Origin: Patescibacteria group bacterium
GTDB taxonomy: Bacteria > Patescibacteriota > Patescibacteriia > 2-01-FULL-39-33
Direction: 5' to 3'
Assembly (NCBI GenBank): GCA_041649575.1
Contig: JBAZMW010000003.1
Span: 30,001 to 62,000, forward strand
Length of the DNA stretch: 32,000 nt
In this document: positions 4,816-32,000 of the stretch, piece by piece
Layout: every line of letters begins with the position of its first letter
Numbering within the stretch: the first letter of the stretch is position 1
Program-made: the position numbers and the translations under genes
The notes under the pieces: generated by a model
What the model was told of the DNA's origin: nothing
What the model saw: only the letters and a program-made list of their open reading frames with translations
Database searches by the model: none

Positions 4816-6156
4816 TTAATAATTTAAAATTGTTTTTACTCTTTTCGCTTCTTTGAATTTATGAAAAATTATCTTGTCTATATTGTAAGTGCCATATTTA
4901 GGCGCCTCGACAAAACCCTGGATAGCCGCCTCGGCCAACCAGCCGGATTTTAGCCAATCACCGAGCCATTCATTGGCATAAAGCGGGTTTTCCTGATCGA
5001 TGCCCGTGCCCAAGAGCCGCAGCCATTTCTGATTGAAAATTTCTTGCGAGCCAATAGGCGGCGCCATAATTATTGGCAAACCCAAAGCGCAATAAAAAGA
5101 TAGTTCACTGGGCTTGGTCCATAGGACGTCGGTGTTTCTTAGCAATAAATTAAACTTTCTGAAATATTTATCTTTGGTCGGCTCAAATAAAATCTTTACG
5201 CCCCAGCCAAGCGCCTTGGCCAGGCGCAGCCTTTTGATTTCTTTTTTAAAATAGTTGTTAACCTCATTATTGACGCCAGCCACCAGATTAATTCTCATTT
5301 TTTTGGCGATGACTTCTTTCTTCAAGCTAGCAACGATTTGCATTCCCAGCTCCCTTTGAGCGCCAGCGCCGCCGACGGCAAAAGTAATAGTCAGGGGGCG
5401 AATTAATTTGGTTCTGAGATTATTTCTGCCTAGTTGCTGAATTAAAGTTTTTTTATATTGGGAAATATAAACTTGATGCGGATCGAGCTGAATCAGCCGC
5501 CGGCCCAAATCGGCTTTCAAAATTTTCAGATTATCTCCCACGTTTTCTTGAGGCAAGGGAAAGCCGGTAAAAAATATCCGGCCGGGGTTGACGCCATAAA
5601 GCTTTAGTCTTTCCTCTACCCGCTTATTGGTGGCAAAATAAATGATCCGGCTGTTATGGGGATCGGGCGGCACCCAGGCGCGGCTGATATCGGTATCGCA
5701 TAAAACGCAATAAATCTCACCAGGATAATTGAAATACTCGGCCATCATGGCGGTGGCAAAAAAAGTAGTGACAAAAGGCAGGGGTTTTCTGGACAATTTG
5801 TCAATCAAGTGTTTGCCCCAATTATCTTTTTTGAAAAACTTGTAGATTTCCCTGAGTTGGATGTTGCTCTTGGACAGATCGCGGCGGGGATAGAATTGGG
5901 GGATGGACTGGATTTTATCGTAGAGCTCAAAGGCCTTATTGCCAATGAGCGGCACCATCTTGAAACGAGAAATAAACTCATAAAAAGCCCGGCTATTTTG
6001 CCAGATACTGCGGTCTTTCTCGGGAATGCCGGGGTAATTGTTGGCGGTGATAATTTTGCCTTGAGCGATCGATTTCAGAGGGTAGGCAGCCCGCTGATGG
6101 CCATAACCCATATCGACAGTCACCACCCAGGCTTTATGCGGCAAACTTTCGGACAT
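4816..6156 (-). CDS. Glycosyltransferase, MGDG-synthase/GT28-like (tentative)
   Basis: N-terminal VVTVDMGYGHQRAAYPL resembles the G-G-G-H..AA..L motif of MGDG-synthase/UgtP-type enzymes. The C-terminal half has a Rossmann-like AVGGAGAQRE. Assignment is from memory only. Confidence 0.45.
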   Translation of the reverse strand: MSESLPHKAWVVTVDMGYGHQRAAYPLKSIAQGKIITANNYPGIPEKDRSIWQNSRAFYEFISRFKMVPLIGNKAFELYDKIQSIPQFYPRRDLSKSNIQLREIYKFFKKDNWGKHLIDKLSRKPLPFVTTFFATAMMAEYFNYPGEIYCVLCDTDISRAWVPPDPHNSRIIYFATNKRVEERLKLYGVNPGRIFFTGFPLPQENVGDNLKILKADLGRRLIQLDPHQVYISQYKKTLIQQLGRNNLRTKLIRPLTITFAVGGAGAQRELGMQIVASLKKEVIAKKMRINLVAGVNNEVNNYFKKEIKRLRLAKALGWGVKILFEPTKDKYFRKFNLLLRNTDVLWTKPSELSFYCALGLPIIMAPPIGSQEIFNQKWLRLLGTGIDQENPLYANEWLGDWLKSGWLAEAAIQGFVEAPKYGTYNIDKIIFHKFKEAKRVKTILNY

Positions 6157-6200
6157 AATAAAAAATTAAAATCAGCAATTATAAATTATTATTATTATAC

Positions 6201-6227
6201 CAAAAACCCCGTTGAAATCCAACGGGG
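6201..6227 (-). terminator. Intrinsic terminator downstream of hup
   Basis: CCCCGTTG (6207-6214) pairs with CAACGGGG (6220-6227). On the minus strand TTTTTG follows. Confidence 0.65.
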
Positions 6228-6256
6228 CTCTTGGCGCTTTAAAGCAGTAGCTATTA

Positions 6257-6538
6257 CTAGAGAACCGCTTCTTTGGCGGCTTTGGCGACTCGGAATTTAA
6301 CCACGGTTTTAGCCGGGATCCTGATGCTTTCGCCGGTAGCTGGGTTGCGGCCTTCGCGGGCTTTGCGCTGGACTTTGACCAGCTTGCCTAGTCCCGGAAC
6401 CACAAACTCGCCATTTTTCTTGACTTCGGAATAAGCCATATCGGTCAGCTTATCCAACAAAGCCACTACGTCTTTCTTGGCCAGGCCAGTGGCATCGGCC
6501 AGAGAACTCATTAACTGTGACTTGGTCATTTTAGCCAT
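6257..6538 (-). CDS. hup: HU/IHF-family nucleoid DNA-binding protein
   Basis: 93 aa. The sequence GLGKLVKVQRKAREGRNPATGESIRIPAKTVVKFRVAKAAK is the HU beta-arm signature. Confidence 0.9.
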   Translation of the reverse strand: MAKMTKSQLMSSLADATGLAKKDVVALLDKLTDMAYSEVKKNGEFVVPGLGKLVKVQRKAREGRNPATGESIRIPAKTVVKFRVAKAAKEAVL

Positions 6539-20975: not shown

Positions 20976-22268
20976 CTAATTATTATAAGATAATTTTTGA
21001 TTATCACCCAGCAATTTTTTAATAATATCGTTTCTCTGATTCAGACTAAAAGCGTGAAGCACCACCACAATACTGTTGTCTTTCTTTAAAGCCACGTTCC
21101 TTTGCGCCTCCACCAAAAAACCGGTTTTGACCGCTTCCGGCTCAAAGGCCAACAAACTCAAATTGCGATTTTTCACCGCCACCTCCCGCTCTTGGCCCGA
21201 AGCGTCCTCAGCCCTAAACACACAATCAGAACAACGCGTGCCTTCGACTATTTCCTTCTTGTCAAAAGCTACTCTGGCAATGACGGCAAACTCCTCGGCG
21301 GTGCTGATGTTATTGGCATCCAAGCCGGACATCTCAAAAAATTTAGTCTTTCCCAACCCTAAATCCTTGGCCTTTTGATTCATTGCCGCCACAAATTCAC
21401 TGCGGCTTAACCCGCTGTTATCGGCTAAAACCACCGCCGACTGGTTGGAGGAAGCGGTTAGTAGCGAATTCCACAAATCCCCTATTCTTATTTTGTCGCC
21501 CGCTCGCAAATCCACTTCGCTGGTGGTGCCCTTGGCGGCCAAGGTGTAGGGATAATTAATTTCGGTTTCGGTAATTTCTATGGTCTTATCCCAATCCGGA
21601 TCCTGGTCGAGAAAAACCAAGGCCGTCATCAGTTTGCTTAAAGAAGCCAGCGGCAAAATGGTCTGGGAATTCGAGCCGTTGGAAAATTCTTCATCGCTGT
21701 ATTTGACATAAGCCACGGCCGGAAAAGCCGAGTCAAAAGTGAATTGCTCATTATTCATCGCCAATTTTCTCAAAGTGACGTCATTGACTTGCCAGCCGAT
21801 CACCTTGATAATTCTAGAGAAATCTTTAAAGGTCATCACCGGATAACGAATATTGTCGCCGGGATTAACATACCAATAATCTTTTTTTTCGGTAAAAATT
21901 ATCTTTCCTTTATACTTATTAAGCAAAGTTTTCTGGCTCGGCTGGCCTTTTTTGGCGGCCAGACCAGCCAATTCTTTGGCGCTGACCTTAACGGCCAATT
22001 TTTGCTTCAAAAAATCCAGATCCGCCTCGCTTCTTAGAGCGTATCTTTTTTTGTCGGCCTCATTGCCGTACCACAGATTGTTTAGCACTTCTTTTTGAAT
22101 CAAAAACCGCCCCGACAAATCCGCCTGGGTAAAAACCTTGGCCACCGGCATTTTTTTGACGGCAGTTTTCTGACTGGCGGCCTGGCCGACTGAGGGCAAA
22201 AATAAAAAACCAAACAAACTCAACAAAAAAATTTTTTGCCAAAGATTTTTAGAAATTTTTGAATTCAT
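20976..22268 (-). CDS. D-alanyl-D-alanine carboxypeptidase (S11 penicillin-binding protein) with N-terminal extension
   Basis: SxxK in LASLSKLMTALVFL, SxN in LTASSNQSA and KTG in AVKTGFL. I took the start at MNSKISKNLWQKIFLLSLFGFLFLPSVGQA (ATG 22268), which gives a signal peptide; the track start is 22301. Confidence 0.8.
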   Translation of the reverse strand: MNSKISKNLWQKIFLLSLFGFLFLPSVGQAASQKTAVKKMPVAKVFTQADLSGRFLIQKEVLNNLWYGNEADKKRYALRSEADLDFLKQKLAVKVSAKELAGLAAKKGQPSQKTLLNKYKGKIIFTEKKDYWYVNPGDNIRYPVMTFKDFSRIIKVIGWQVNDVTLRKLAMNNEQFTFDSAFPAVAYVKYSDEEFSNGSNSQTILPLASLSKLMTALVFLDQDPDWDKTIEITETEINYPYTLAAKGTTSEVDLRAGDKIRIGDLWNSLLTASSNQSAVVLADNSGLSRSEFVAAMNQKAKDLGLGKTKFFEMSGLDANNISTAEEFAVIARVAFDKKEIVEGTRCSDCVFRAEDASGQEREVAVKNRNLSLLAFEPEAVKTGFLVEAQRNVALKKDNSIVVVLHAFSLNQRNDIIKKLLGDNQKLSYNN

Positions 22269-22288
22269 TTTATAATTATAACAAAAAT

Positions 22289-22948
22289 TTACCGCCGCCA
22301 CAATCTTCTAATTAGTGTCATCATCAGAACCACAATAATTATCAAGCCAATCAAACCGCTGGCCAGCCAGTGGCCGACTTTGCCCTCGAAAATTGCCCAG
22401 AGCGGCTTGTTAAAATAATATTTTAAAACCGGTAAATTAATCAGAGTGCGAGCCGCCTCGTCGGGAGGAAAGGCTTCTGCCTGGCCGACCACCAAAACGT
22501 ATTTGCCAAAATTATCGGCGCTGTACGTTTTAATCAGATAATCACCGGCCGGCAACTGAATTTTTTTCTCCGGTCCCTGCCAATAATCGTCACCGGCGAA
22601 TTCTTCATGAAAAATCTGCCAGTCGTAGCCGGAACCGTCCAAGACAAAATTTTGACTTTCCAAATCCGTGCGCTTTAGCTCTGCGGAAACATTTTTTTTG
22701 ACGTCTTTGACGGCCGGCACCAAAATCTGAAAATAAAATTCCAGCGGCTGGTCTAGAATTATTCTAAAATATTCCGGGTCGCCTTTGAGCTGGGCATAAA
22801 AAGCCTGGGAAACCTCGGGGTTGAAAATATCCAACGGCTTATCAAGAGTGGGCGATAAATTATAAATCAAACGCGGCTGATGAGCGCTGGCAGCGCCGCC
22901 CAAGACAAAGCTTAGGAGAATGGCTCCCAAAATAAAAAATTTTTTCAT
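22289..22948 (-). CDS. Secreted, C-terminally anchored hypothetical protein (219 aa)
   Basis: Signal peptide ...GGAASA followed by HQPR. The C-terminal TM helix is GLIGLIIIVVLMMTLI, followed by RRLWRR. Confidence 0.65.
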   Translation of the reverse strand: MKKFFILGAILLSFVLGGAASAHQPRLIYNLSPTLDKPLDIFNPEVSQAFYAQLKGDPEYFRIILDQPLEFYFQILVPAVKDVKKNVSAELKRTDLESQNFVLDGSGYDWQIFHEEFAGDDYWQGPEKKIQLPAGDYLIKTYSADNFGKYVLVVGQAEAFPPDEAARTLINLPVLKYYFNKPLWAIFEGKVGHWLASGLIGLIIIVVLMMTLIRRLWRR

Positions 22949-23070
22949 ATCTTTAAAATAGCCAATAAAAAAATTTTATTCCTGTTTTAGCTGATTAGAT
23001 TATAGCAAAAATTATCATTAGTAGCGACTGGGCCAGGTCTGGACTCTTAGAATTAGACATTCAAATCTAT

Positions 23071-23104
23071 AAAAATAAAAACACCTTTTAGGTGCTTTTA
23101 TTTT
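23071..23104 (-). terminator. Weak A/T-flanked hairpin, possible end of the leftward repressor-TIR-caspase transcript
   Basis: CACC (23082-23085) pairs with GGTG (23091-23094). An A-run and a T-run flank it, so it may be bidirectional. Confidence 0.3.
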
Positions 23105-23289
23105 CTGCAGGCCACTTCGAGCTAGAACCGTCCAGAAGCAACCCCTGTAAGATTATTTTAGCGCTTTTTAGACATACAGGCACGACCCACCTCGAGCATG
23201 CCTATTTTCTAAAAAAGTGACAAAGGTGACACAATATCGGCGTATTAAATTACAACTAAGTGTCACGCTTGCTATTAATAGCCAAAATT

Positions 23290-23511
23290 CTAATTCCGAA
23301 GCTTTTTACGCGCTTCTTTCATAATCTTCTCTCTACCCTCGCTGGGTTCCACCTTTTTTGCCGCTTTAATTAGAGCATCTTTTACATCTTGTTTAGTTTC
23401 ATCTGGAAACTGTTTCTTTAACTGCCTTACTGCATAATCAAACTCATAATTTTGTTTGAAGCTGATCAGGTTTCGGTCAGGCTTACCAATTTTTTTCTTA
23501 TTGTCTGACAT
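23290..23511 (-). CDS. Small Lys-rich protein, DUF3606-like (73 aa)
   Basis: KPDRNLISFKQNYEFDYAVRQLKK resembles the DRxxIN...YE..YW core of DUF3606 as I remember it. It lies 68 nt downstream of the caspase-like gene on the same strand. Confidence 0.45.
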   Translation of the reverse strand: MSDNKKKIGKPDRNLISFKQNYEFDYAVRQLKKQFPDETKQDVKDALIKAAKKVEPSEGREKIMKEARKKLRN

Positions 23512-23579
23512 AATCGTTATTATAATTAATATTTAAATAATGATCATAGGGATTAATATAATATTTTTTAAATACTTAT

Positions 23580-24521
23580 TCAAATTTTACCGTCTTTAAC
23601 CAAACGCCAATAATGATAGCCTAGCGCGGTTAACTTGCAGGACCTTGAATTCTGCGCGGCATAAAACATATGTTCTTCACCTACCGGCACAACCAATCCA
23701 ATACCTACAAACTTTTGAAGGTTTTTCATGATAACAACTTTTTCAGGTACGGCTATATCCTTATTATCAAACTCGTAAGTTGGATCCAATGCATATTCTT
23801 GATCTGGTGTAAGAAAATATTCAGTTATTTTTCTTAACACTTCGGTTGGTACTTGAGGAGTGATGGTGCGTAAAGAAGTAAAACGAGTTACATTAGTTTT
23901 AAATACTGGTCTCTGATCCCATGGCCCCAAAGCTTGATCGATATAAGCGTACACACTTCCTGGAGTTATATGACCTCGAACATCAGCCGCTCCACCCTGT
24001 AAAGCGTCTATTAATAAATTCGTAAAAATTCCATGACCATTAACTTCGACTGAACTTTCGTCCGTCTTACTAGCTGTCAATACAACCACTCCTTCAGAAA
24101 TTTGGGAGCAAACGCCACCCGCTACGGCGGGAGAGCCAAAAGATCCTGAATGGCAGCAATCTAGAATAATAATTTTGTCTTTCGCTTTTGATTTATTTGC
24201 CAATACTAATATTTCATCCATCGATACACCCTCATCGTTAGGTTGATAATCCGGCGTAACAATATAGCCACCGAATTCGTTTAGAAAGCCGTGTCCAGAA
24301 AAATATAATAATGCTATGTCACTATCTCCCTCAAACAGCTCTATAATCGTTGTCTTTAAAGACGATTTTGTAGGAACGTCCATTTTAAGAATTACAGAAA
24401 AATTTGGCGACCCGTCGCCATTTTTTTCAAGGGTAGTCGCAAACGCTGAAGCATCATTAATACAGCCCTTAAGTGGTGAGGTTGGATAATTATTTATACC
24501 AATAACTAAAGCTTTTCTCAT
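23580..24521 (-). CDS. Caspase-like cysteine protease (peptidase C14 fold) with uncharacterised C-terminal domain (313 aa)
   Basis: KALVIGINNYP is followed by the catalytic His in IALLYFSGHG and the catalytic Cys in IIILDCCHSGSFG. The roughly 100-aa C-terminal extension ends in LTALGYHYWRLVKDGKI. I moved the start to ATG 24521 (MRKALVIG). The track start 24617 would overlap the upstream gene by 95 nt. Confidence 0.8.
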   Translation of the reverse strand: MRKALVIGINNYPTSPLKGCINDASAFATTLEKNGDGSPNFSVILKMDVPTKSSLKTTIIELFEGDSDIALLYFSGHGFLNEFGGYIVTPDYQPNDEGVSMDEILVLANKSKAKDKIIILDCCHSGSFGSPAVAGGVCSQISEGVVVLTASKTDESSVEVNGHGIFTNLLIDALQGGAADVRGHITPGSVYAYIDQALGPWDQRPVFKTNVTRFTSLRTITPQVPTEVLRKITEYFLTPDQEYALDPTYEFDNKDIAVPEKVVIMKNLQKFVGIGLVVPVGEEHMFYAAQNSRSCKLTALGYHYWRLVKDGKI

Positions 24522-24522
24522 T

Positions 24523-24900
24523 TCAAAGTTTACTGATAAATGATTTAATATTTTCCCAGCTCCATATGTTGACTCTTCTTCCCGACAGCGATGAAGACAA
24601 TGTTGGCCTATCATCATTGATATACATTAACATCACAGGAATATTTTCATCAATAGCGCACTCAAGCTCAAATTTTTCGCCTGAAGCACCTGGTGTATTA
24701 TTACTAATTAAGCCGATCATGCCGTCACAACCCTTAATTTTCGTCCGGCAACGGTCTTTCCAATCAGTCTTCCACGGTTCTTTTACCGACATATCAATAA
24801 ATTCAAAAGGTGATCTTTCATTTCTCGCTTGTGCAACAAGAAAGTCCCGATATTTCGAATCTTCGGCTGCAAAACTAATAAATACTCTTTTGTTCGACAT
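24523..24900 (-). CDS. Stand-alone TIR-like domain protein (DUF1863/ThsB-like, 125 aa)
   Basis: KRVFISFAAEDSKYRDFL (betaA-helix start typical of TIR/DUF1863), CDGMIGLISNNT, and the candidate catalytic Glu in GEKFELECAI. The TGA stop is separated from the caspase ATG by 1 nt (TGAAATG). Confidence 0.65.
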   Translation of the reverse strand: MSNKRVFISFAAEDSKYRDFLVAQARNERSPFEFIDMSVKEPWKTDWKDRCRTKIKGCDGMIGLISNNTPGASGEKFELECAIDENIPVMLMYINDDRPTLSSSLSGRRVNIWSWENIKSFISKL

Positions 24901-24911
24901 AAATTATTTTA

Positions 24912-25532
24912 TTAATTAATTAAATCGCCTGGCAACACCGCATCAACGACTCCCTGGATCAGACAATTGGAAGTTAAAATAATCGGCTTGTGCGTTTTAT
25001 TACTTGACTTTGGTCTGAGGATAACCACATCACCCTTATTCTCCAAAATCTTTACCGTCGCCTCGTCATTTATAAGCGCAACTACCCTCTCCCCCGTATC
25101 TGCCGATTCTTGCTGACGTATCAATAACAAATCGCCGCTATTAATTCCCGCCTGATCCATTGAATCACCAATCGCACGAAGCAAAAAATATGTGAAACCT
25201 TTTTTTGCTAACATCGTTGAAACCGGTATCCGAGTTTGAATATTTTCTTCTGCCAGCATCGGTTCTCCGCATGTTACCGCACCAACCAAAGGAACTTCAA
25301 CCGTGCTGACTGAGTTTGCCTGTTGAATATTGGTAAGTATAAGTCCCTGGCCAGTCTTTTTAATTAATCCTGCCCGCACAAGACGATCAACAACTAAACT
25401 CGCCGATCTCGGCGATTTACCACCCGTCACCTCATTTATCTCCCTGAGAGACGGACTTACCCCATAATGGGCTATTTTATTTCGGATAAGAGAAAAAGCC
25501 CTTTTGTCTTTGTCGTTAAGGTTTTTGGTCAT
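24912..25532 (-). CDS. LexA/CI-type repressor (winged-HTH plus S24 self-cleaving peptidase)
   Basis: The N-terminal GVSPSLREINEVTGGKSPRSASLVVDRLVRAGLI is a LexA-type wHTH. VPLVGAVTCGEP aligns with the LexA cleavage loop VPLVGRVAAGEP. The Ser nucleophile is in AIGDSM and the Lys is in EATVKIL. I took the start at the ATG at 25532 (MTKNLN); the track start at 25562 is a TTG. Confidence 0.85.
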   Translation of the reverse strand: MTKNLNDKDKRAFSLIRNKIAHYGVSPSLREINEVTGGKSPRSASLVVDRLVRAGLIKKTGQGLILTNIQQANSVSTVEVPLVGAVTCGEPMLAEENIQTRIPVSTMLAKKGFTYFLLRAIGDSMDQAGINSGDLLLIRQQESADTGERVVALINDEATVKILENKGDVVILRPKSSNKTHKPIILTSNCLIQGVVDAVLPGDLIN

Positions 25533-25590
25533 AGTATAATAAGTATACAAGACCCTATACAAAAAAGCAAGGGCCTGCTATACTGTAATT
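25533..25590. promoter_or_regulatory. Divergent, overlapping, essentially leaderless promoters (genetic-switch region) with TATACA repeats
   Basis: Rightward: TATACA (25556-25561), 17 nt, TATACT (25579-25584), then 6 nt, then the ATG at 25591. Leftward: TTGCTT (complement of 25565-25570), 17 nt, TATACT (complement of 25542-25547), then 9 nt, then the ATG at 25532. TATACA is repeated at 25544 and 25556 (12-bp period), plus TATACT at 25579. Confidence 0.5.
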
Positions 25591-26007
25591 ATGGAGTACC
25601 AATTACAGCTTAAGCCGTTCATAAGAAAAGACGGCCAAAAGTATAAAATTATTCAACTAACTGATATCGCCCTGCATACCGCCAAAAAGCAGGCCACTCG
25701 TTCGATTGGCAAAAAAATTAAGGAATTATTCGACTTTAAAAAACCCATACGAATTTACTCCCCTATTCAGTTGAATAAGCAAGGGAATCAGACTGATAAA
25801 AATTCTTTTACAGTTGAGGTATTACGACAAGATCCTGATTTTCAAGAAATGGTTAGAAATCAAGAAGCAAATGGATACAAAATATTATTAGAAGTGTCAA
25901 AGGGCGGAATTCCGGTTGTTATGGGAAAAGATACTCAGGTATTTATAAAAAGCAAGAACGGCCAGCGGATACTCCGAAAATTTGCCAAAAATGATGATCA
26001 GCGATAA
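25591..26007 (+). CDS. Hypothetical Lys-rich early protein (138 aa)
   Basis: It is the first gene of the rightward transcript of the switch. I recognise no domain. Confidence 0.55.
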   Translation: MEYQLQLKPFIRKDGQKYKIIQLTDIALHTAKKQATRSIGKKIKELFDFKKPIRIYSPIQLNKQGNQTDKNSFTVEVLRQDPDFQEMVRNQEANGYKILLEVSKGGIPVVMGKDTQVFIKSKNGQRILRKFAKNDDQR

Positions 26008-26066
26008 AATTTAATCACAAAATTTTCTGCGTAGTAAAAAGTAGAATAGCTATCGCCCTTAAAGCC

Positions 26067-26140
26067 ATGCCTATTCCGCGCAAGAAATAGTTTGAAGTTT
26101 TTCAACTTCGACTGTTTCGTGTGTGGAATAGGCATTTTTG
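26067..26140 (+). terminator. Unusually long (about 30 bp) imperfect hairpin plus T-tract; a terminator and/or structured RNA/DNA site
   Basis: ATGCCTATTCC-GCGCA-a-GAAATAG-tt-TGAAGTT-[TTTC]-AACTTCG-a-CTGTTTC-g-TGTGT-GGAATAGGCAT. I hand-paired the arms, with several G-U pairs. TTTTTG follows. Confidence 0.55.
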
Positions 26141-26180
26141 TTTATATATATATTTTATAAATTAATAATTAACAAATTGT

Positions 26181-27449
26181 ATGAAAAAACTACAATGGCA
26201 CACAGCGCAAAAACGGGTCAACGACCTTATCCCCTACGAGGTCAACCCACGAGTCATCACCGACAAGCAAATGTCGGATCTTCAAAGCAGTCTTAAAAAA
26301 TACAATCTGGTAGAAATCCCAGCCGTTGACACTGGCGGAACCATTCTTGCGGGTCATCAGCGAATCAAAGCGCTTCAGCTTCTTGGTCGAGGCGATGAGT
26401 TAATCGATGTGCGAGTTCCCAATCGTAAGCTGACTAAAAGCGAATCAAAACAATACTTGATCGCTTCCAATAAGCTCGGCGGTGACTGGGATTATGATCT
26501 GCTGAAATCATTTGATTTGGAGACTCTGTCATTTGCGGGATTTGACAGTATTGAGCTGTCAAAATTTTGGGATAAAGAAAACGAAACTAAAACCGATTCA
26601 TTCGATGTTGAAAAAGAACTGAAAAAAATCATAAAACCCAAAACAAAACTTGGCGACATTATTTGCCTGGGAAAAAACAAAATTATCTGTGGAGATTCAA
26701 CCGATCAAAAAACACTAATCAAACTGCTCGGCGACGAAAAGGTTTCAATGATTTATTCTGACCCCGTCTATAATATCCAAATTGATTATAACGGCGGAAT
26801 TGGCGGCGATAAAGACTATGGCGGTAACGTCAATGATTCACGGACATTTGAAGAATACAAGCAGTTTATTACCGACAGCCTGAAATCCGCCCTTGCCGTG
26901 TCAAATCCCGACACCCATGTCTTTTACTACTGCGATCAAATATATATCGGACTGATTCAGGAAGTCTATCTATCGCTTGGGATAAATAATAAGCGGGTTT
27001 GCCTGTGGCTGAAAAATTCGCAAAACCCCGTGCCAAAAGTATTTTGCAATAAAGCCTATGAGCCAGCCGTGTATGGCGTCCGGGGAAAACCATATCTGGC
27101 CGAATCAATAACGGACTTAAACGAAGTAATGAATAAAGAATTTGGCACGGGAAACGAACTTATTGACCAAGTTGATAGTTTTCTTGAAATTTGGACGGCA
27201 AAACGCTTATCAGCCAAAGATTACGAACATGCCACCTCTAAACCCATAACCCTGCATGAAAAAGCGATAAAACGATGTACCAAGATTGGCGATATTATCC
27301 TTGATAGCTTTCTGGGCTCGGGCAGTACCCTGCTTGCGGGCGAACAATTGGGCAGGCGTGTGTATGGTTGCGAATTAGAGCCAAGGTTTTGTGACCTGAT
27401 AGTTAAACGCTATGAAGCGTTTACGGGCGTTAAAGCAATAATTAAATAA
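26181..27449 (+). CDS. ParB-like nuclease domain fused to N6/N4 DNA methyltransferase (beta-class)
   Basis: The N-terminal LIPYEVNPRVI...ILAGHQRIKAL is ParB/Srx-like. The motif IV-like element is IYSDPVYN (DPPY variant). The motif I element is ILDSFLGSGSTLLAGEQLGRRVYGCELE. Confidence 0.8.
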   Translation: MKKLQWHTAQKRVNDLIPYEVNPRVITDKQMSDLQSSLKKYNLVEIPAVDTGGTILAGHQRIKALQLLGRGDELIDVRVPNRKLTKSESKQYLIASNKLGGDWDYDLLKSFDLETLSFAGFDSIELSKFWDKENETKTDSFDVEKELKKIIKPKTKLGDIICLGKNKIICGDSTDQKTLIKLLGDEKVSMIYSDPVYNIQIDYNGGIGGDKDYGGNVNDSRTFEEYKQFITDSLKSALAVSNPDTHVFYYCDQIYIGLIQEVYLSLGINNKRVCLWLKNSQNPVPKVFCNKAYEPAVYGVRGKPYLAESITDLNEVMNKEFGTGNELIDQVDSFLEIWTAKRLSAKDYEHATSKPITLHEKAIKRCTKIGDIILDSFLGSGSTLLAGEQLGRRVYGCELEPRFCDLIVKRYEAFTGVKAIIK

Positions 27450-27450
27450 T

Positions 27451-27861
27451 ATGAAAAAGAATAAACTTCAAGACCAACTTTTTGAAGAGTTGGCAAAAGT
27501 ACCCATCGTTCAGGTAGCCTGCGAAAAGACCGGCATTTCCCGAAACAGCGTCTACCGTTGGCGCAAGGAAGATCCCGCTTTCGCAAAAAAAATGGACAAG
27601 GCACTGTCAGATGGCGTAGCGTTGGTAAATGACATGAGTGAAAGTCAGTTGTTAATAATGATCAAAGAAAAAAATTGGTCGGCAATCAGCTTCTGGCTAA
27701 AACACCGAAACGACAATTACAAAAATAAGATTGAGATAACAACCAAAGAAGATTCTGAGGCGCTGACCCCATCGCAAGCCAAAATTGTAAGACAGGCTCT
27801 AAAATTGGCTGCCATTACTGAAGCCAAATCAATAAAGAATATTAATGACAAAACAGTATGA
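27451..27861 (+). CDS. Terminase small subunit-like HTH protein
   Basis: The HTH is VACEKTGISRNSVYRWRKEDPAFAKKM. It sits immediately upstream of TerL, and the two genes overlap by 4 nt (ATGA). Confidence 0.55.
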   Translation: MKKNKLQDQLFEELAKVPIVQVACEKTGISRNSVYRWRKEDPAFAKKMDKALSDGVALVNDMSESQLLIMIKEKNWSAISFWLKHRNDNYKNKIEITTKEDSEALTPSQAKIVRQALKLAAITEAKSIKNINDKTV

Positions 27862-29342
27862 ATAAAATCATCGGATCTAACCTTGTGAATAAAATGATGA
27901 AGGATAGACTCATTAGAACGTCAATCACCAAAGATAGTTTTCTCTACTTTTTTCATTTTTACTATGCCCACTACGTAAAATACGAAACCGCTGATTTCCA
28001 AAAGGAAATTATTAATAATCTTGAAAAAAGTTCGACTGAAAATATGTACGTCGTTGCCTTTCGGGGTTCAGGCAAGTCAACCATGGTGACAACCGCCTAC
28101 CCGATCTGGGCAATGTTAGGAAAACAGCAAAAGAAATTTTGTTTGATTTTCTGCCAAACACGGACGCAGGCGAAGCAGCACATGATGAATATTCGGGGTG
28201 AACTTGAAGGTAACGACCTCTTAAAGAAAGATTTGGGCCCTTTTCAGGAGCAAAGCGATGAATGGGGTTCATATTCGCTTGTGTTTAACAAAAGCGGCGC
28301 CCGTATTACTGTGGCGTCAACTGAACAAAGCATCCGAGGCATTAGGCACAACGAACATCGGCCGGATTTAATAATCTGTGACGACGTTGAAGACGTCCAA
28401 TCAACCAAAACTCGCGAGGGCCGGGATAAAACCTACCAATGGCTTTATGGCGAGGTCATGCCCGCTGGAGACCGCAAAACTCGCTTAATAATTGTCGGTA
28501 ATCTTTTACATGAAGATTCCCTGCTAATGCGGATTAAAGACGATATCAAAAATAACCGATCAAAAGGTGTCTTTAAACAGTATCCCCTGCTCGACACTAA
28601 TGATGTTTGTCTATGGCCCGGGAAATATCCCGAAAAAAAAGACATTGAAGAAGAAAAGCTAAAAATTGCTAGCGAAATATCATGGCAACGTGAATACCTG
28701 CTTCGCATTATTCCCAGCGACGATCAGGTTATATACCACGAATGGTTAAATTATTATGACAATTTACCAAGTCAAAAACATATTGCTTATCGGGGCACCT
28801 ACGCTGGCGTGGATTTAGCCATTTCAACTGAAGATTCAGCTGATTTTACCACAATCGTTTCAGCGAGAATATATGGCCGGGCGGAAAAATTAAAAATATA
28901 TATTCTTCCAAATCCCATTATGGAAAAATTGAATTTCCCAGCTCAAGTGGAATTAATGAAAAATTTTAAAGCCACGCAAATGCCAAATTATAGTGATACC
29001 CTATTTGTCGAAAGTGTCTCATATCAAGAAGCTTTGCCGCAAATGTTAGAGTTAAACGGCGTTGATGCGGAATCAATCAAACCAAAGGGCGATAAACGGA
29101 CACGGCTTGCCTTAACATCGACATCAATTAAATCCGGCATCATTAAATTTCCACGACATGGTTGTGAGCGGCTAATTGAGCAGTTAGTGGGCTTCGGCGT
29201 TGAAAAGCATGACGATCTGGCCGATGCTTTTTCATTATTAATTAATTCTACTTTAGACAAGCACGCCCATGAATCAACGTGGTATATGGCTTTCCTGGGT
29301 GGTAAAACCTATTATTATCCTGATTACGTTGACGTGGACTAG
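27858..29342 (+). CDS. Terminase large subunit (ATPase plus RNaseH-like nuclease)
   Basis: Walker A is AFRGSGKSTMV and Walker B is DLIICDDVED. The C-terminal nuclease acidic residues are in YAGVDLAIS and GVEKHDDLADAF. Confidence 0.85.
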   Translation: MNKIIGSNLVNKMMKDRLIRTSITKDSFLYFFHFYYAHYVKYETADFQKEIINNLEKSSTENMYVVAFRGSGKSTMVTTAYPIWAMLGKQQKKFCLIFCQTRTQAKQHMMNIRGELEGNDLLKKDLGPFQEQSDEWGSYSLVFNKSGARITVASTEQSIRGIRHNEHRPDLIICDDVEDVQSTKTREGRDKTYQWLYGEVMPAGDRKTRLIIVGNLLHEDSLLMRIKDDIKNNRSKGVFKQYPLLDTNDVCLWPGKYPEKKDIEEEKLKIASEISWQREYLLRIIPSDDQVIYHEWLNYYDNLPSQKHIAYRGTYAGVDLAISTEDSADFTTIVSARIYGRAEKLKIYILPNPIMEKLNFPAQVELMKNFKATQMPNYSDTLFVESVSYQEALPQMLELNGVDAESIKPKGDKRTRLALTSTSIKSGIIKFPRHGCERLIEQLVGFGVEKHDDLADAFSLLINSTLDKHAHESTWYMAFLGGKTYYYPDYVDVD

Positions 29343-29434
29343 CGAAAAATAGCAAATGCTATGTAAAAAGATGCCAACAAGTTGCCAACAGGTATAGCTT
29401 AGCAAAACCGCTAATCTCTGGCATCAATGTATAC

Positions 29435-30754
29435 ATGGATACCAACCAAATCTCAGCACTTATAGGCAAGCCTGCCATAGTGCCCATAATTAAGGCTAAA
29501 TACGTCCTGTACGCTCGAAAATCGACCGAACAGGACGAAAGACAAGCCTTATCAATTGAATCTCAGGTCAAAGAAATGCTTGCCATAGCGGAGCGTGAAA
29601 ATCTTGATGTTATCGATATACGGCGTGAAGCCCATTCGGCCAAAGATTCGGGTCAGCGCCCGGTATTTAAAGAAATTTTGGAAGATCTGCGACGAGAGCG
29701 ATTTAACGGCATTTTAGTCTGGCACCCTGATCGCCTAAGCAGAAACGCCGGTGATTTAGGGTCGTTGGTAGATTTAATGGATCAAAGGCTACTAGTCCAA
29801 ATACGTACCTACGGGCAAACTTTCACCAATACGCCAAGCGAGAAATTTTTACTAATGATTTTATGTAGTCAGGCAAAACTGGAAAACGATAATAAAAGCA
29901 TAAACGTAAAGCGTGGCCTAAGGACACGGGTTGAAATGGGGTTATGGCCAGCGACAGCACCGACCGGATATCTCAATGAGAAAAGAATTGACCGAAAAGG
30001 TTATGTTCTCGTTGATCCTGACCGAGCGCCGATTATTAAACAAATGTTTGAAAAAGTCGCCTACGAAAAATGGACTGGCAGAAAATTATACCATTGGCTG
30101 AGATTTGATTTAAATTTCAGAACAGCGGCAGGCGGAAAGCATTTATCGTTGGGCAACATATACGTATTACTACAAAATCATTTTTACTACGGCGTATTTG
30201 AGTACCCGAAAAAAAGTGGCAATTGGTACAATGGCAAACACACTCCAATTATCACCAAGGAGTTATATGACTTGGTTCAAGGACAAGTCAAAAGCCAAAT
30301 TATGAGATCAGAGACTAAGGAGTTTGCGTTTACCAAACTTATAACCTGTGGTTTATGCGGATCAGGGATAACGGCCGATGAAAAATTTAAAAAGCAAAAA
30401 GATGGCAGCGTCCACCGTCATGTTTATTATAAGTGCACAAAATCAAGAGATAAAGATTGTAAGTGCGGATTTATAAATGAGATTGAATTGTTAAAACAGT
30501 TTGAAAAATTAATCAACAAAGTCAGCATAAATGAAATGGGCATGAAAGAAAAAATTAAATATGAAGTTGAAAGAATTAAAAAATTTCAACAATCCATACT
30601 TGGCGTAAAGCAAGATATTAAAATAAAAGACGTAGACATCCGAGACTACGCCAAATTTATTTTAAAGGATGGATCTGTTGAAGAGAAACGAGAATTACTG
30701 AGTTGTTTTAAAAGCAAAATTACTTTACAAAATAAACAAATTTCCCTTCGCTAA
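29435..30754 (+). CDS. Large serine recombinase (integrase)
   Basis: The resolvase catalytic domain is YVLYARKSTEQDERQALSIESQ...VWHPDRLSRN. The recombinase domain includes APTGYLN. The zinc ribbon is CGLCGSGI...YYKCTKS. The C-terminus is a coiled coil. Confidence 0.9.
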   Translation: MDTNQISALIGKPAIVPIIKAKYVLYARKSTEQDERQALSIESQVKEMLAIAERENLDVIDIRREAHSAKDSGQRPVFKEILEDLRRERFNGILVWHPDRLSRNAGDLGSLVDLMDQRLLVQIRTYGQTFTNTPSEKFLLMILCSQAKLENDNKSINVKRGLRTRVEMGLWPATAPTGYLNEKRIDRKGYVLVDPDRAPIIKQMFEKVAYEKWTGRKLYHWLRFDLNFRTAAGGKHLSLGNIYVLLQNHFYYGVFEYPKKSGNWYNGKHTPIITKELYDLVQGQVKSQIMRSETKEFAFTKLITCGLCGSGITADEKFKKQKDGSVHRHVYYKCTKSRDKDCKCGFINEIELLKQFEKLINKVSINEMGMKEKIKYEVERIKKFQQSILGVKQDIKIKDVDIRDYAKFILKDGSVEEKRELLSCFKSKITLQNKQISLR

Positions 30755-30790
30755 ATTAATTCATATTTAAAATATAATATTTCCCACAAA

Positions 30791-31312
30791 TTATCGAAAT
30801 GTCCACCCACGTTCTTTTGATAATCCTAATAGATCCAAACATCCAACATTATAAGATGAGTCCTTACAAATATTAGGAATGGTCCATTTTGAGGGTTTAA
30901 GACTGACCGTATAGCGTTCTTCGGTAATAATTTTTAATCCTTCATGTTTTGCCTGAGCGATTAGCCAAGGATCTGCATGCACTGAACCGATCTTTGCGTT
31001 AACAAAAGATGAAAATTTTGGTGACATGGTACGTAAAATTTTACCTTCCGCAATTAAATTATAATCCTGAAAAATACTTTTATTTTTTTGTGCCCAATCA
31101 TACAATTCTATACCTTTCTTACCGTCAGTTTTTATCTCTAATAGAACTTCAACATGAGAAATAATTATTCCCTGTTTAATTAAATCTAAAACATTTGCCC
31201 AAAGTCCCGGAGTAACTTCTTTTGATGACCATCCTGTGCCATTAAAAATATCCATCAATGAACTACTATCGATGGTGTATTCAGCAGGCTTTGAAAAAAG
31301 GTCATTAATCAT
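30791..31312 (-). CDS. DUF4411 (PIN-like) family protein
   Basis: YTIDSSSLMDIFNG...PGLWANVLDLIKQGIIISHVEVLLEI...SVHADPWLIAQAKHEGLKIITEE matches my recollection of DUF4411. It overlaps the upstream ImmA-like gene by 8 nt. Confidence 0.6.
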   Translation of the reverse strand: MINDLFSKPAEYTIDSSSLMDIFNGTGWSSKEVTPGLWANVLDLIKQGIIISHVEVLLEIKTDGKKGIELYDWAQKNKSIFQDYNLIAEGKILRTMSPKFSSFVNAKIGSVHADPWLIAQAKHEGLKIITEERYTVSLKPSKWTIPNICKDSSYNVGCLDLLGLSKERGWTFR

Positions 31313-32000
31313 AGGAATTTAAAACATCTCTAAATCCAGAAATATACCTTCTTTTTAAACCAAGATAATCAGAGACTGTTGAGTAAGAAATTTTATTGTG
31401 ACTATAGGCCTCAATCACTAAAGAGCTAAAAGATTTTCCATTTTTTTGAACAATTGTTTTTAATGAAAAACTGCCACCCGCTTTTCGTTTTGGCATTAAT
31501 GATTTATCCCAAGTTTCAACTTTATCTAAATATATTGATTTTTCAATCAACTTAAAAAATAACATTCTCCTCAATATAACCACTCTACTAACCTTAAAAT
31601 CTATGGCTAATTTTCTGACAATCGAATCAAGATCGTCCGAACTAATCTTATTAATATTTCGTAACAAATAATGATTTAAAAAATCATCCTCGGGAACTAA
31701 AAAATTTGCTGCGAATTTATTACAAAATATTTCGACTTTATTAACGTGACCGTCAACATCATCAAATATTTTAAAATTATTACATAATCCAGTCTCACGT
31801 AATAAAATATGTGCAAACTCATGAGCTAAAGAAAAATTTTTAGCACCCTCATAGTCTTTATTATTTATTAAAATCACATATGGCTTTAAATCAGCGAAAG
31901 AAAAAGCCCTATAGTCCTCCGTGGGGAAAGTATCGTGCAGAACCGCCTTTAAAGTGATCACTCCCGTTGCTTCAATCTTTGACCTAAGGTACTCAAAAAA
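31305..32000 (-). CDS. ImmA/IrrE-family (M78) zinc metallopeptidase; the 5' end runs off the window
   Basis: The HExxH motif is in FSLAHEFAHILLRE. The frame stays open upstream of the track's GTG at 31961 to the window edge (FFEYLRSKIEATG...), so the CDS is partial. Confidence 0.7.
   Translation of the reverse strand, partial: FFEYLRSKIEATGVITLKAVLHDTFPTEDYRAFSFADLKPYVILINNKDYEGAKNFSLAHEFAHILLRETGLCNNFKIFDDVDGHVNKVEIFCNKFAANFLVPEDDFLNHYLLRNINKISSDDLDSIVRKLAIDFKVSRVVILRRMLFFKLIEKSIYLDKVETWDKSLMPKRKAGGSFSLKTIVQKNGKSFSSLVIEAYSHNKISYSTVSDYLGLKRRYISGFRDVLNSYD

Follow-up and report, generated by a model that had tools for sequence, protein, structure and literature searches.

A type IV Thoeris TIR-caspase pair behind a LexA-type repressor gene, the probable defence cargo of a satellite-like element in Patescibacteria

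In phage lambda the abortive-infection genes rexAB are located behind the gene for the cI repressor and are co-transcribed with it. Among the Thoeris systems, type IV has been described from Pseudomonas sp. 1-7, where it consists of PsTIR and PsCaspase (Rousset et al., Science 387:510, 2025; bioRxiv 10.1101/2024.10.24.620036). Table S2 of that work holds the sequence of the cloned Pseudomonas operon, and its Table S1 already includes genomes of Parcubacteria and Nomurabacteria (Rousset et al., bioRxiv 10.1101/2024.10.24.620036). Here we analyze a homologous TIR-caspase gene pair encoded in a stretch of 32,000 nucleotides (nt) from a metagenome-assembled genome (MAG) of the Patescibacteria group (GenBank assembly GCA_041649575.1, contig JBAZMW010000003.1, positions 30,001 to 62,000), which is hereinafter called the window and numbered from its first letter. 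We consider it very probable that this type IV Thoeris pair is the defence cargo of a satellite-like element and is transcribed from the autoregulated promoter of the repressor gene of that element.

The TIR-caspase pair and its relatives

The 125-aa TIR protein (features and their coordinates are collected in Table 1) scores above the cut-off of the Pfam ThsB_TIR profile (25.3 bits versus 21.2) and is recovered by the PADLOC model ThsB1 (E=1.4e-6). It aligns end to end with PsTIR, a protein of 123 aa, at 37% identity and 69% positives (E=1e-32). Glu78, within the motif KFELECA, pairs in this alignment with the catalytic Glu79 of PsTIR and is invariant in an alignment of 16 TIR sequences, PsTIR included. 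These matches substantiate the original prediction, made from the letters of the window, of a stand-alone TIR protein with a candidate catalytic Glu, and on sequence grounds the 125-aa protein is the predicted signal synthase of type IV Thoeris. The sole match of the TIR in a sequence search of the PDB is the ThsB-like TIR 8v6t (E=4e-4), and this search, run with both the TIR and the caspase, returned no solved type IV Thoeris protein to serve as a reference.

The partner is a caspase-like protease of 313 aa that matches Pfam Peptidase_C14 (E=5e-22), the PADLOC "caspase" model PDLC02987 (E=2.7e-25) and phrog_18397 (E=1.7e-87). His77 of the motif YFSGHG and both Cys122 and Cys123 of the motif LDCCHSG are invariant across 37 caspase homologues, so that the His/Cys dyad proposed for this C14 protease is intact and correctly aligned. 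All 313 residues align at 45% identity (E=1e-101) with a caspase from the Pseudomonas aeruginosa plasmid CP136985.1 whose gene adjoins that of a TIR 70% identical to PsTIR, and Cys123 falls in the catalytic cysteine column of this alignment, opposite Cys130 of the plasmid orthologue. The latter was reached via homologues of PsTIR and was used for the full-length comparison; PsCaspase itself was compared over its first nine residues, MRKALVVGI, which correspond to MRKALVIGI in the window. A further match, to the NCBIfam model NF047832 (caspase_w_EACC1; E=8e-30), scores 103.9 bits, under the cut-off of 140, and was for this reason not used to classify the caspase. In the PDB the sole sequence match is the metacaspase MCA2 (E=2e-4), and the best folds found with an AlphaFold2 model of the protein (predicted local distance difference test score 77.5) are those of the MALT1 paracaspase, caspase-1 and a yeast metacaspase (E 1e-12 to 1e-9); the predicted model confirms a paracaspase/caspase fold.

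The C-terminal 114 residues had been taken for an extra effector domain. When this segment was searched alone against 1.84 billion representatives it matched 608 clusters, nearly all of which are caspases of 310-335 aa bearing the domain at their C-terminus, and the alignment with the plasmid caspase continues through it to the last residue (LTVLGQHYWNLVKEGLI versus LTALGYHYWRLVKDGKI). Judged by these homologies the segment is a canonical part of type IV Thoeris caspases, and the notion of an additional effector domain is to be abandoned. The same holds for the proposal that the pair occurs here in an unusually small form: with PsTIR at 123 aa and partner caspases at about 310-335 aa, both proteins are of ordinary size. 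Invariant residues of the domain include W201, Q203, R204, H303, Y304 and W305. In a fold search the domain places MarR-type winged-helix proteins at the top, at non-significant values (E>=0.04). It has been hypothesized to sense N7-cyclic ADP-ribose (N7-cADPR; Rousset et al., bioRxiv 10.1101/2024.10.24.620036). Beyond the caspases of standard length, the type IV C-terminal domain also terminates a protein of 836 aa (P0264) that joins TIR_2, TPR repeats and Peptidase_C14 with it in one chain, as well as proteins of 1017 aa (P0244, with two caspase stretches) and 464 aa (P0156).

The caspase-centered set comprised 88 loci. Among the 80 genome loci assessed for TIR pairing, which were retrieved with the caspase and come from Bacteroidota, Bacillota, Patescibacteria and others, about 65 have a TIR homologue adjoining the caspase, and across the family the gap between stop and start is 1-5 nt. 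The two genes thus do co-occur in other genomes, and the choice between orthology and an independent TIR-caspase pairing, which the original prediction had left undecided, can be made from the PsTIR and plasmid caspase alignments. Because both proteins are homologous over their full length, their catalytic residues are intact, no domain is missing and the pairing is conserved, we assign the pair by sequence to type IV Thoeris, as an orthologue and regular member and not an independent invention. Some relatives carry further genes beside the pair. In two close relatives of the window (L003 and L005, both at 5946..6353; caspase identity 80-83%) a second ThsB_TIR gene, of 135 aa, directly follows the caspase and matches the "additional TIR" column in Table S1 of the type IV Thoeris study (bioRxiv 10.1101/2024.10.24.620036). 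On Rhizobium and Pseudomonas plasmids (L001 5359..5634, L002 5383..5664) a conserved gene of 91-93 aa follows the type IV pair; its product has a weak match to the RyR domain, under the cut-off (E=3e-4 to 8e-4), and is unrelated to the 73-aa gene of the window.

By homology with the tested Pseudomonas system, the TIR would sense infection and convert NAD+ to N7-cADPR by means of Glu78; N7-cADPR would activate the caspase, probably via its C-terminal domain in a dimer; the protease, through His77 and Cys123, would then cleave EF-Tu and numerous further proteins behind Arg residues; and the infected cell would give no phage, i.e. would undergo abortive infection. The homology, the catalytic residues, the domain set and the gene pairing are observed in this locus, and the chemistry and the phenotype are carried over from Pseudomonas; homology to a tested system to this extent supports the earlier description of the pair as a TIR-caspase abortive-infection module. 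In the E. coli system, escape mutations of phage T6 map to a capsid vertex protein (Rousset et al., bioRxiv 10.1101/2024.10.24.620036). A reversal of the roles, in which the caspase would cleave and activate the TIR and the latter would kill by depleting NAD+, could be entertained since TIR domains deplete NAD as effectors in several other systems. We give it next to no credence: it was rejected for the orthologous Pseudomonas system, where the size of the TIR is unchanged and the drop in NAD+ mild (bioRxiv 10.1101/2024.10.24.620036), and a TIR of 125 aa leaves no additional segment for a protease to remove.

The repressor gene and its promoter region

The pair belongs to a run of four tightly packed minus-strand genes, namely those for a LexA-type repressor, the TIR, the caspase and a 73-aa protein, with gaps of 11, 1 and 68 nt. 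The TIR ATG lies 11 nt beyond the repressor stop codon (24912-24914), the TGA of the TIR gene (24523-24525) is separated by a single A from the caspase ATG at 24521 (TGA-A-ATG, a 1-nt gap), and the 73-aa gene begins 68 nt past the caspase stop. The caspase start was set at 24521 on the family-conserved MRKALV; the mechanical list of open reading frames (ORFs) begins upstream, at 24617. When the sequence was re-read, the coordinates, junctions and motifs given in the original prediction all proved correct.

The presence of a LexA/CI-type repressor 11 nt upstream on the same strand was likewise upheld by the profile searches, which recovered Pfam Peptidase_S24 (E=5e-25), LexA_DNA_bind and the NCBIfam lexA equivalog TIGR00498 (133 bits, cut-off 110.95). 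The protein is 36% identical to E. coli LexA, with the Ser (GDSM) and the Lys (TVK) aligned, and has Cys-Gly at its cleavage site versus Ala-Gly in E. coli LexA. Cleavage at Cys-Gly is known from UmuD. Of the 20 S24-positive loci, 18 have the S24 gene immediately upstream of the TIR-caspase pair and in the same orientation; the loci with this trio are all of the Patescibacteria type, and no Bacteroidota or Bacillota locus has an S24 gene in this position. Among otherwise co-linear elements the repressor is between 28% and 75% identical. Variation of this range is typical of swappable immunity regions and not of a housekeeping regulator, and the protein is probably the immunity repressor of the element. 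In certain relatives a DUF2188 gene separates the S24 repressor gene from that for the TIR (L007 4364..4606, L012 4686..4967); DUF2188 was named a putative Thoeris effector in a 2025 preprint.

The promoter-like site of the repressor operon ends 9 nt before the ATG, an arrangement conserved in four orthologous loci, and the mRNA starting from this predicted promoter would be nearly leaderless. Its spacer and -10 are overlapped by a candidate operator, the palindrome GTATA-N8-TATAC, which extends as well over the -35 element of the promoter-like site that reads divergently towards orf138, and the same palindrome occupies the same position in L003/L010, L009 and L015. It is this conservation across loci that supports the candidate operator; the count in the window lends no support, as the motif has one match in the 32 kb and at least one match arises by chance in 30% of shuffles, a non-significant result when taken alone. 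The simplest reading of this arrangement is that the repressor would be negatively autoregulated and released by RecA-stimulated cleavage. The Thoeris genes, whose co-expression with the repressor we infer from the gene spacing, would accordingly stand at a basal level that is raised by an SOS signal. An internal promoter-like site, with 10 of 12 consensus positions matched, lies just upstream of the TIR ATG; the consensus scan that found it yields 21 such matches in this AT-rich DNA versus 9.8 expected. An Rfam scan of 22000..32000 found no RNA family. Two further repeats were noted in this part of the window: a palindrome containing TGTATACA (29419..29444), which overlaps the integrase start and has the GTATAC core in common with the candidate operator, and a 25-nt inverted repeat (84% complementary, 19-nt loop; 26067..26135) between orf138 and the methylase gene.

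The integrase/terminase block and the 73-aa gene

The repressor, TIR and caspase genes form one end of a block of about 7.2 kb (23569..30742) whose other genes encode a serine integrase, large (TerL) and small (TerS) terminase-like proteins, a ParB-methylase and orf138. From the caspase stop to the end of the integrase the block has co-linear counterparts, 66-75% identical in nucleotide sequence, in no fewer than 11 Patescibacteria loci (blastn and tblastn), and the genes flanking it differ from genome to genome; 11 of the 13 assessable loci retain the whole block in the same gene order. Nucleotide homology to the related loci ends at 23569, at the caspase stop, and the integrase at the far end is 65-73% identical in these loci. 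A tblastn search with TerL matched 291 phage records, several of them annotated as large terminase; TerS has a weak match to Pfam Sf6_terminase, and the ParB-methylase matches phrog_498 (E=2e-81) and the ParB-like phrog_620. The protein encoded by orf138 recurs at the same position, with 31-55% identity in tblastn, in L007, L009, L011, L013, L035 and L085, and found no family match in Pfam or phrog profile searches. With the S24 repressor operon placed inside an integrase/terminase block that recurs in at least 11 loci with varied flanks, the earlier suggestion that the pair is cargo of a mobile element gains support, and from gene content the element is most likely a small integrative one of satellite-like kind, with the pair as its defence cargo.

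Several observations weigh against this picture. Searches with Pfam and phrog profiles found no capsid, portal, tail or replication genes in the block 23569..30742, and no convincing direct repeats (attachment sites) flank it; for these reasons the mobility of the element, and its type as satellite or decayed prophage, are conclusions drawn from its genes. The S24-TIR-caspase trio also occurs with no terminase or integrase nearby, between mur genes and cmk in L005/L014 and between the genes for a photolyase and UDG in L012, where by eye an apparent remnant of the N-terminus of orf138 can be recognized. The repressor passes the cut-off of the true LexA equivalog, so that it could be a host SOS regulator; the internal promoter-like site could drive the TIR and caspase genes independently of the repressor promoter; and the full-length homology of the caspase rests on the plasmid orthologue and not on the tested PsCaspase.

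Because L005/L014 and L012 keep the trio apart from terminase and integrase, two other accounts of the repressor retain some weight. In one, the S24 protein serves the Thoeris genes as their own regulator, responsive to DNA damage (compare CapH/CapP and BrxR/CapW in other defence systems), rather than an element as its immunity repressor, and the trio was captured beside the terminase/integrase block. Besides those loci, the constant position of the S24 gene as the immediate upstream neighbor speaks for such a regulator. Yet 11 of 13 assessable loci hold the whole block in unchanged order, the apparent orf138 remnant in L012 suggests decay of an element, the candidate operator reaches into the divergent promoter from which genes of the element itself would be read, and related S24 genes (29-52% identity) adjoin the 73-aa family and serine recombinases with other cargo; we hence deem this account unlikely. 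In the other, the repressor is the host LexA itself, and the pair belongs to the SOS regulon of the chromosome as a damage-induced suicide or defence module and is not mobile cargo. The equivalog score, the identity to E. coli LexA with Ser and Lys kept, and the DNA-repair genes on both sides in L012 are in line with this proposal. It is nonetheless decidedly improbable in our estimate, in light of the wide divergence of the repressor among otherwise co-linear elements, its co-linearity with integrase, terminases and a phage-type methylase at different genomic sites, and the occurrence of the candidate operator motif once in the window, at the promoter of the repressor itself.

The location of the pair at the very end of the mobile block, along with an effector that kills cells and the slight toxicity of the E. 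coli 328 system on induction (Rousset et al., bioRxiv 10.1101/2024.10.24.620036), would also agree with a chiefly addictive, toxin-like module that stabilizes the element: once the element itself or the control by its repressor was lost, the protease would be set free, and phage defence would be secondary. This appears very improbable, since tested homologues need phage infection for the signal and are otherwise tolerated (bioRxiv 10.1101/2024.10.24.620036), no antitoxin-like partner is present, and such pairs are often found in defence islands that lie outside mobile elements.

The 73-aa gene next to the caspase had been put forward as an extra partner of the pair. We reject this role: the gene is found in none of the 88 caspase-centered loci, it lies just outside the conserved block, and the neighbors within its own family are S24 genes and serine recombinases. 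The "DUF3606-like" label holds in part, in that NCBI names the protein DUF3606; the Pfam match (PF12244) is below the cut-off (13 bits versus 24.3; E=0.09) and confined to residues 5-32. The family has 253 homologues at 68-89% identity. Among 58 metagenome loci retrieved with it none has an adjacent caspase, and in eight an S24 repressor adjoins the 73-aa gene, with a serine recombinase within a few kb in several; a scan of viral_contigs with the protein found nothing. A contig look-up gave one further place where this gene is next to a caspase, L089/L090, with the caspase convergent. Its neighbors being S24 repressors, serine recombinases and other cargo, the 73-aa gene goes with the repressor and the backbone of the element. 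In L113 (840..6385) a LexA-like gene is followed after 5 nt by a homologue of the 73-aa gene, and then by genes for a SAVED protein, a SMODS nucleotidyltransferase and a (disrupted) serine recombinase; from its gene content this is the same operon frame with cargo like that of cyclic-oligonucleotide-based antiphage signaling systems (CBASS) in place of Thoeris. A different defence-type neighborhood is seen in a 3-Mb genome (L091/L092, 4001..7049), where a homologue lies beside an HTH_3 gene and a Multi_ubiq/ThiF cluster for ubiquitin-like conjugation.

As type IV Thoeris in the window and CBASS-like genes in L113 occupy this frame, the repressor operon might be a slot for swappable abortive-infection cargo. 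More broadly, we tentatively raise the possibility, which falls well short of being probable, that the block of about 7 kb with integrase, TerL, TerS, methylase and orf138/repressor represents an undescribed family of minimalist, integrative satellite-like elements of Patescibacteria, in which a RecA-cleavable LexA-type repressor would raise defence once DNA damage or phage infection sets off the SOS signal. In a Shapirobacteria locus (L068 8001..14169) the TIR-caspase pair is directly followed by integrase, TerL, TerS and methylase genes, a circular permutation of the order in the window, as expected if the block circularizes or integrates via another site. Just past the integrase of the window, on the minus strand (30791..31961), lie two overlapping genes, one for a DUF4411 (PIN-like) and one for a Peptidase_M78 (ImmA/IrrE) protein; this part of the window has the lowest GC content (0.30-0.34) and no counterpart in the related loci, and the two genes may constitute another defence or toxin-antitoxin pair.

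Table 1. Features of the TIR-caspase locus and the adjoining block, in window coordinates
Feature	Position	Strand	Remarks
ThsB-type TIR gene	24523..24900	minus	125 aa; from ORF reading and domain searches
Caspase-like protease gene	23580..24521	minus	313 aa; effector of the pair
Caspase C-terminal domain	23583..23924	minus	residues 200-313; canonical type IV Thoeris domain
TIR catalytic Glu78 codon	24667..24669	minus	assigned by homology
Caspase His77 codon	24291..24293	minus	
Caspase Cys123 codon	24153..24155	minus	
LexA-type repressor gene	24912..25532	minus	206 aa from ATG 25532; LexA DNA-binding and S24 autoprotease domains
Promoter-like site of repressor operon	25542..25570	minus	-35 TTGCTT, 17-nt spacer, -10 TATACT; read from sequence
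Candidate operator GTATA-N8-TATAC	25543..25560	none	palindrome; binding predicted
Internal promoter-like site	24906..24935	minus	TTGCCA-18-TAAAAT; within 3' end of repressor gene
73-aa gene (orf73)	23290..23511	minus	conserved small protein
orf138	25591..26007	plus	divergent from repressor; conserved element gene in Cro-like/early-gene position
ParB-methylase gene	26181..27449	plus	ParB-like N-terminal domain fused to N6/N4 DNA methyltransferase (N6_N4_Mtase E=1e-28)
TerS gene	27451..27861	plus	small terminase-like, 136 aa; phrog_4044 E=2.9e-9
TerL gene	27858..29342	plus	large terminase-like, 494 aa; phrog_38 E=2e-73
Integrase gene	29435..30754	plus	large serine recombinase; Pfam Resolvase, Recombinase, Zn_ribbon_recom; phrog_95 E=2e-60

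Significance and comparison with described systems

The system itself is already described, and its placement behind the repressor of a small mobile element in Patescibacteria is the only, mildly new point; our literature search found no link between type IV Thoeris and LexA-type repressors or elements of Patescibacteria. The context suggests that the ultra-small, host-dependent Patescibacteria gain abortive-infection systems on integrase/terminase elements, behind a self-cleaving repressor. Should expression indeed follow cleavage of the repressor, the locus would offer an uncomplicated example of TIR signaling tuned by SOS. The element family could also give access to the phage-satellite biology of these bacteria, about which little is known.

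The closest described relative is the type IV Thoeris of Pseudomonas, with which the pair shares homology over the full length of both proteins, aligned catalytic Glu, His and Cys residues and a junction of a few nt between stop and start. It differs in sequence (37% identity for the TIR, about 45% for the caspase) and in its host, a Patescibacteria MAG; the window also has no "additional TIR" gene, whereas the close relatives L003 and L005 have one, and the location of the pair behind an S24 repressor gene is absent from the published description. The EACC1-associated caspases (NF047832) and PADLOC PDLC02987 have the caspase domain in common with the window protein, which matches both models, but the match to the EACC1-associated group extends over the protease domain only, and the C-terminal domain and the TIR partner mark another system.

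With lambda rexAB the locus shares the placement of an abortive-infection module directly downstream of a RecA-cleavable S24 repressor on an element of temperate type, so that a resident element would protect its host; in contrast, the proteins and the mechanism are unrelated, and the promoter here looks negatively autoregulated. As in phage satellites of the phage-inducible chromosomal island (PICI) and phage-inducible chromosomal minimalist island (PICMI) types, a small integrative block combines integrase, repressor and packaging genes and has no capsid or tail genes. Unlike these satellites the block has both TerS and TerL, uses a large serine recombinase and is without recognized replication or helper-interference genes.

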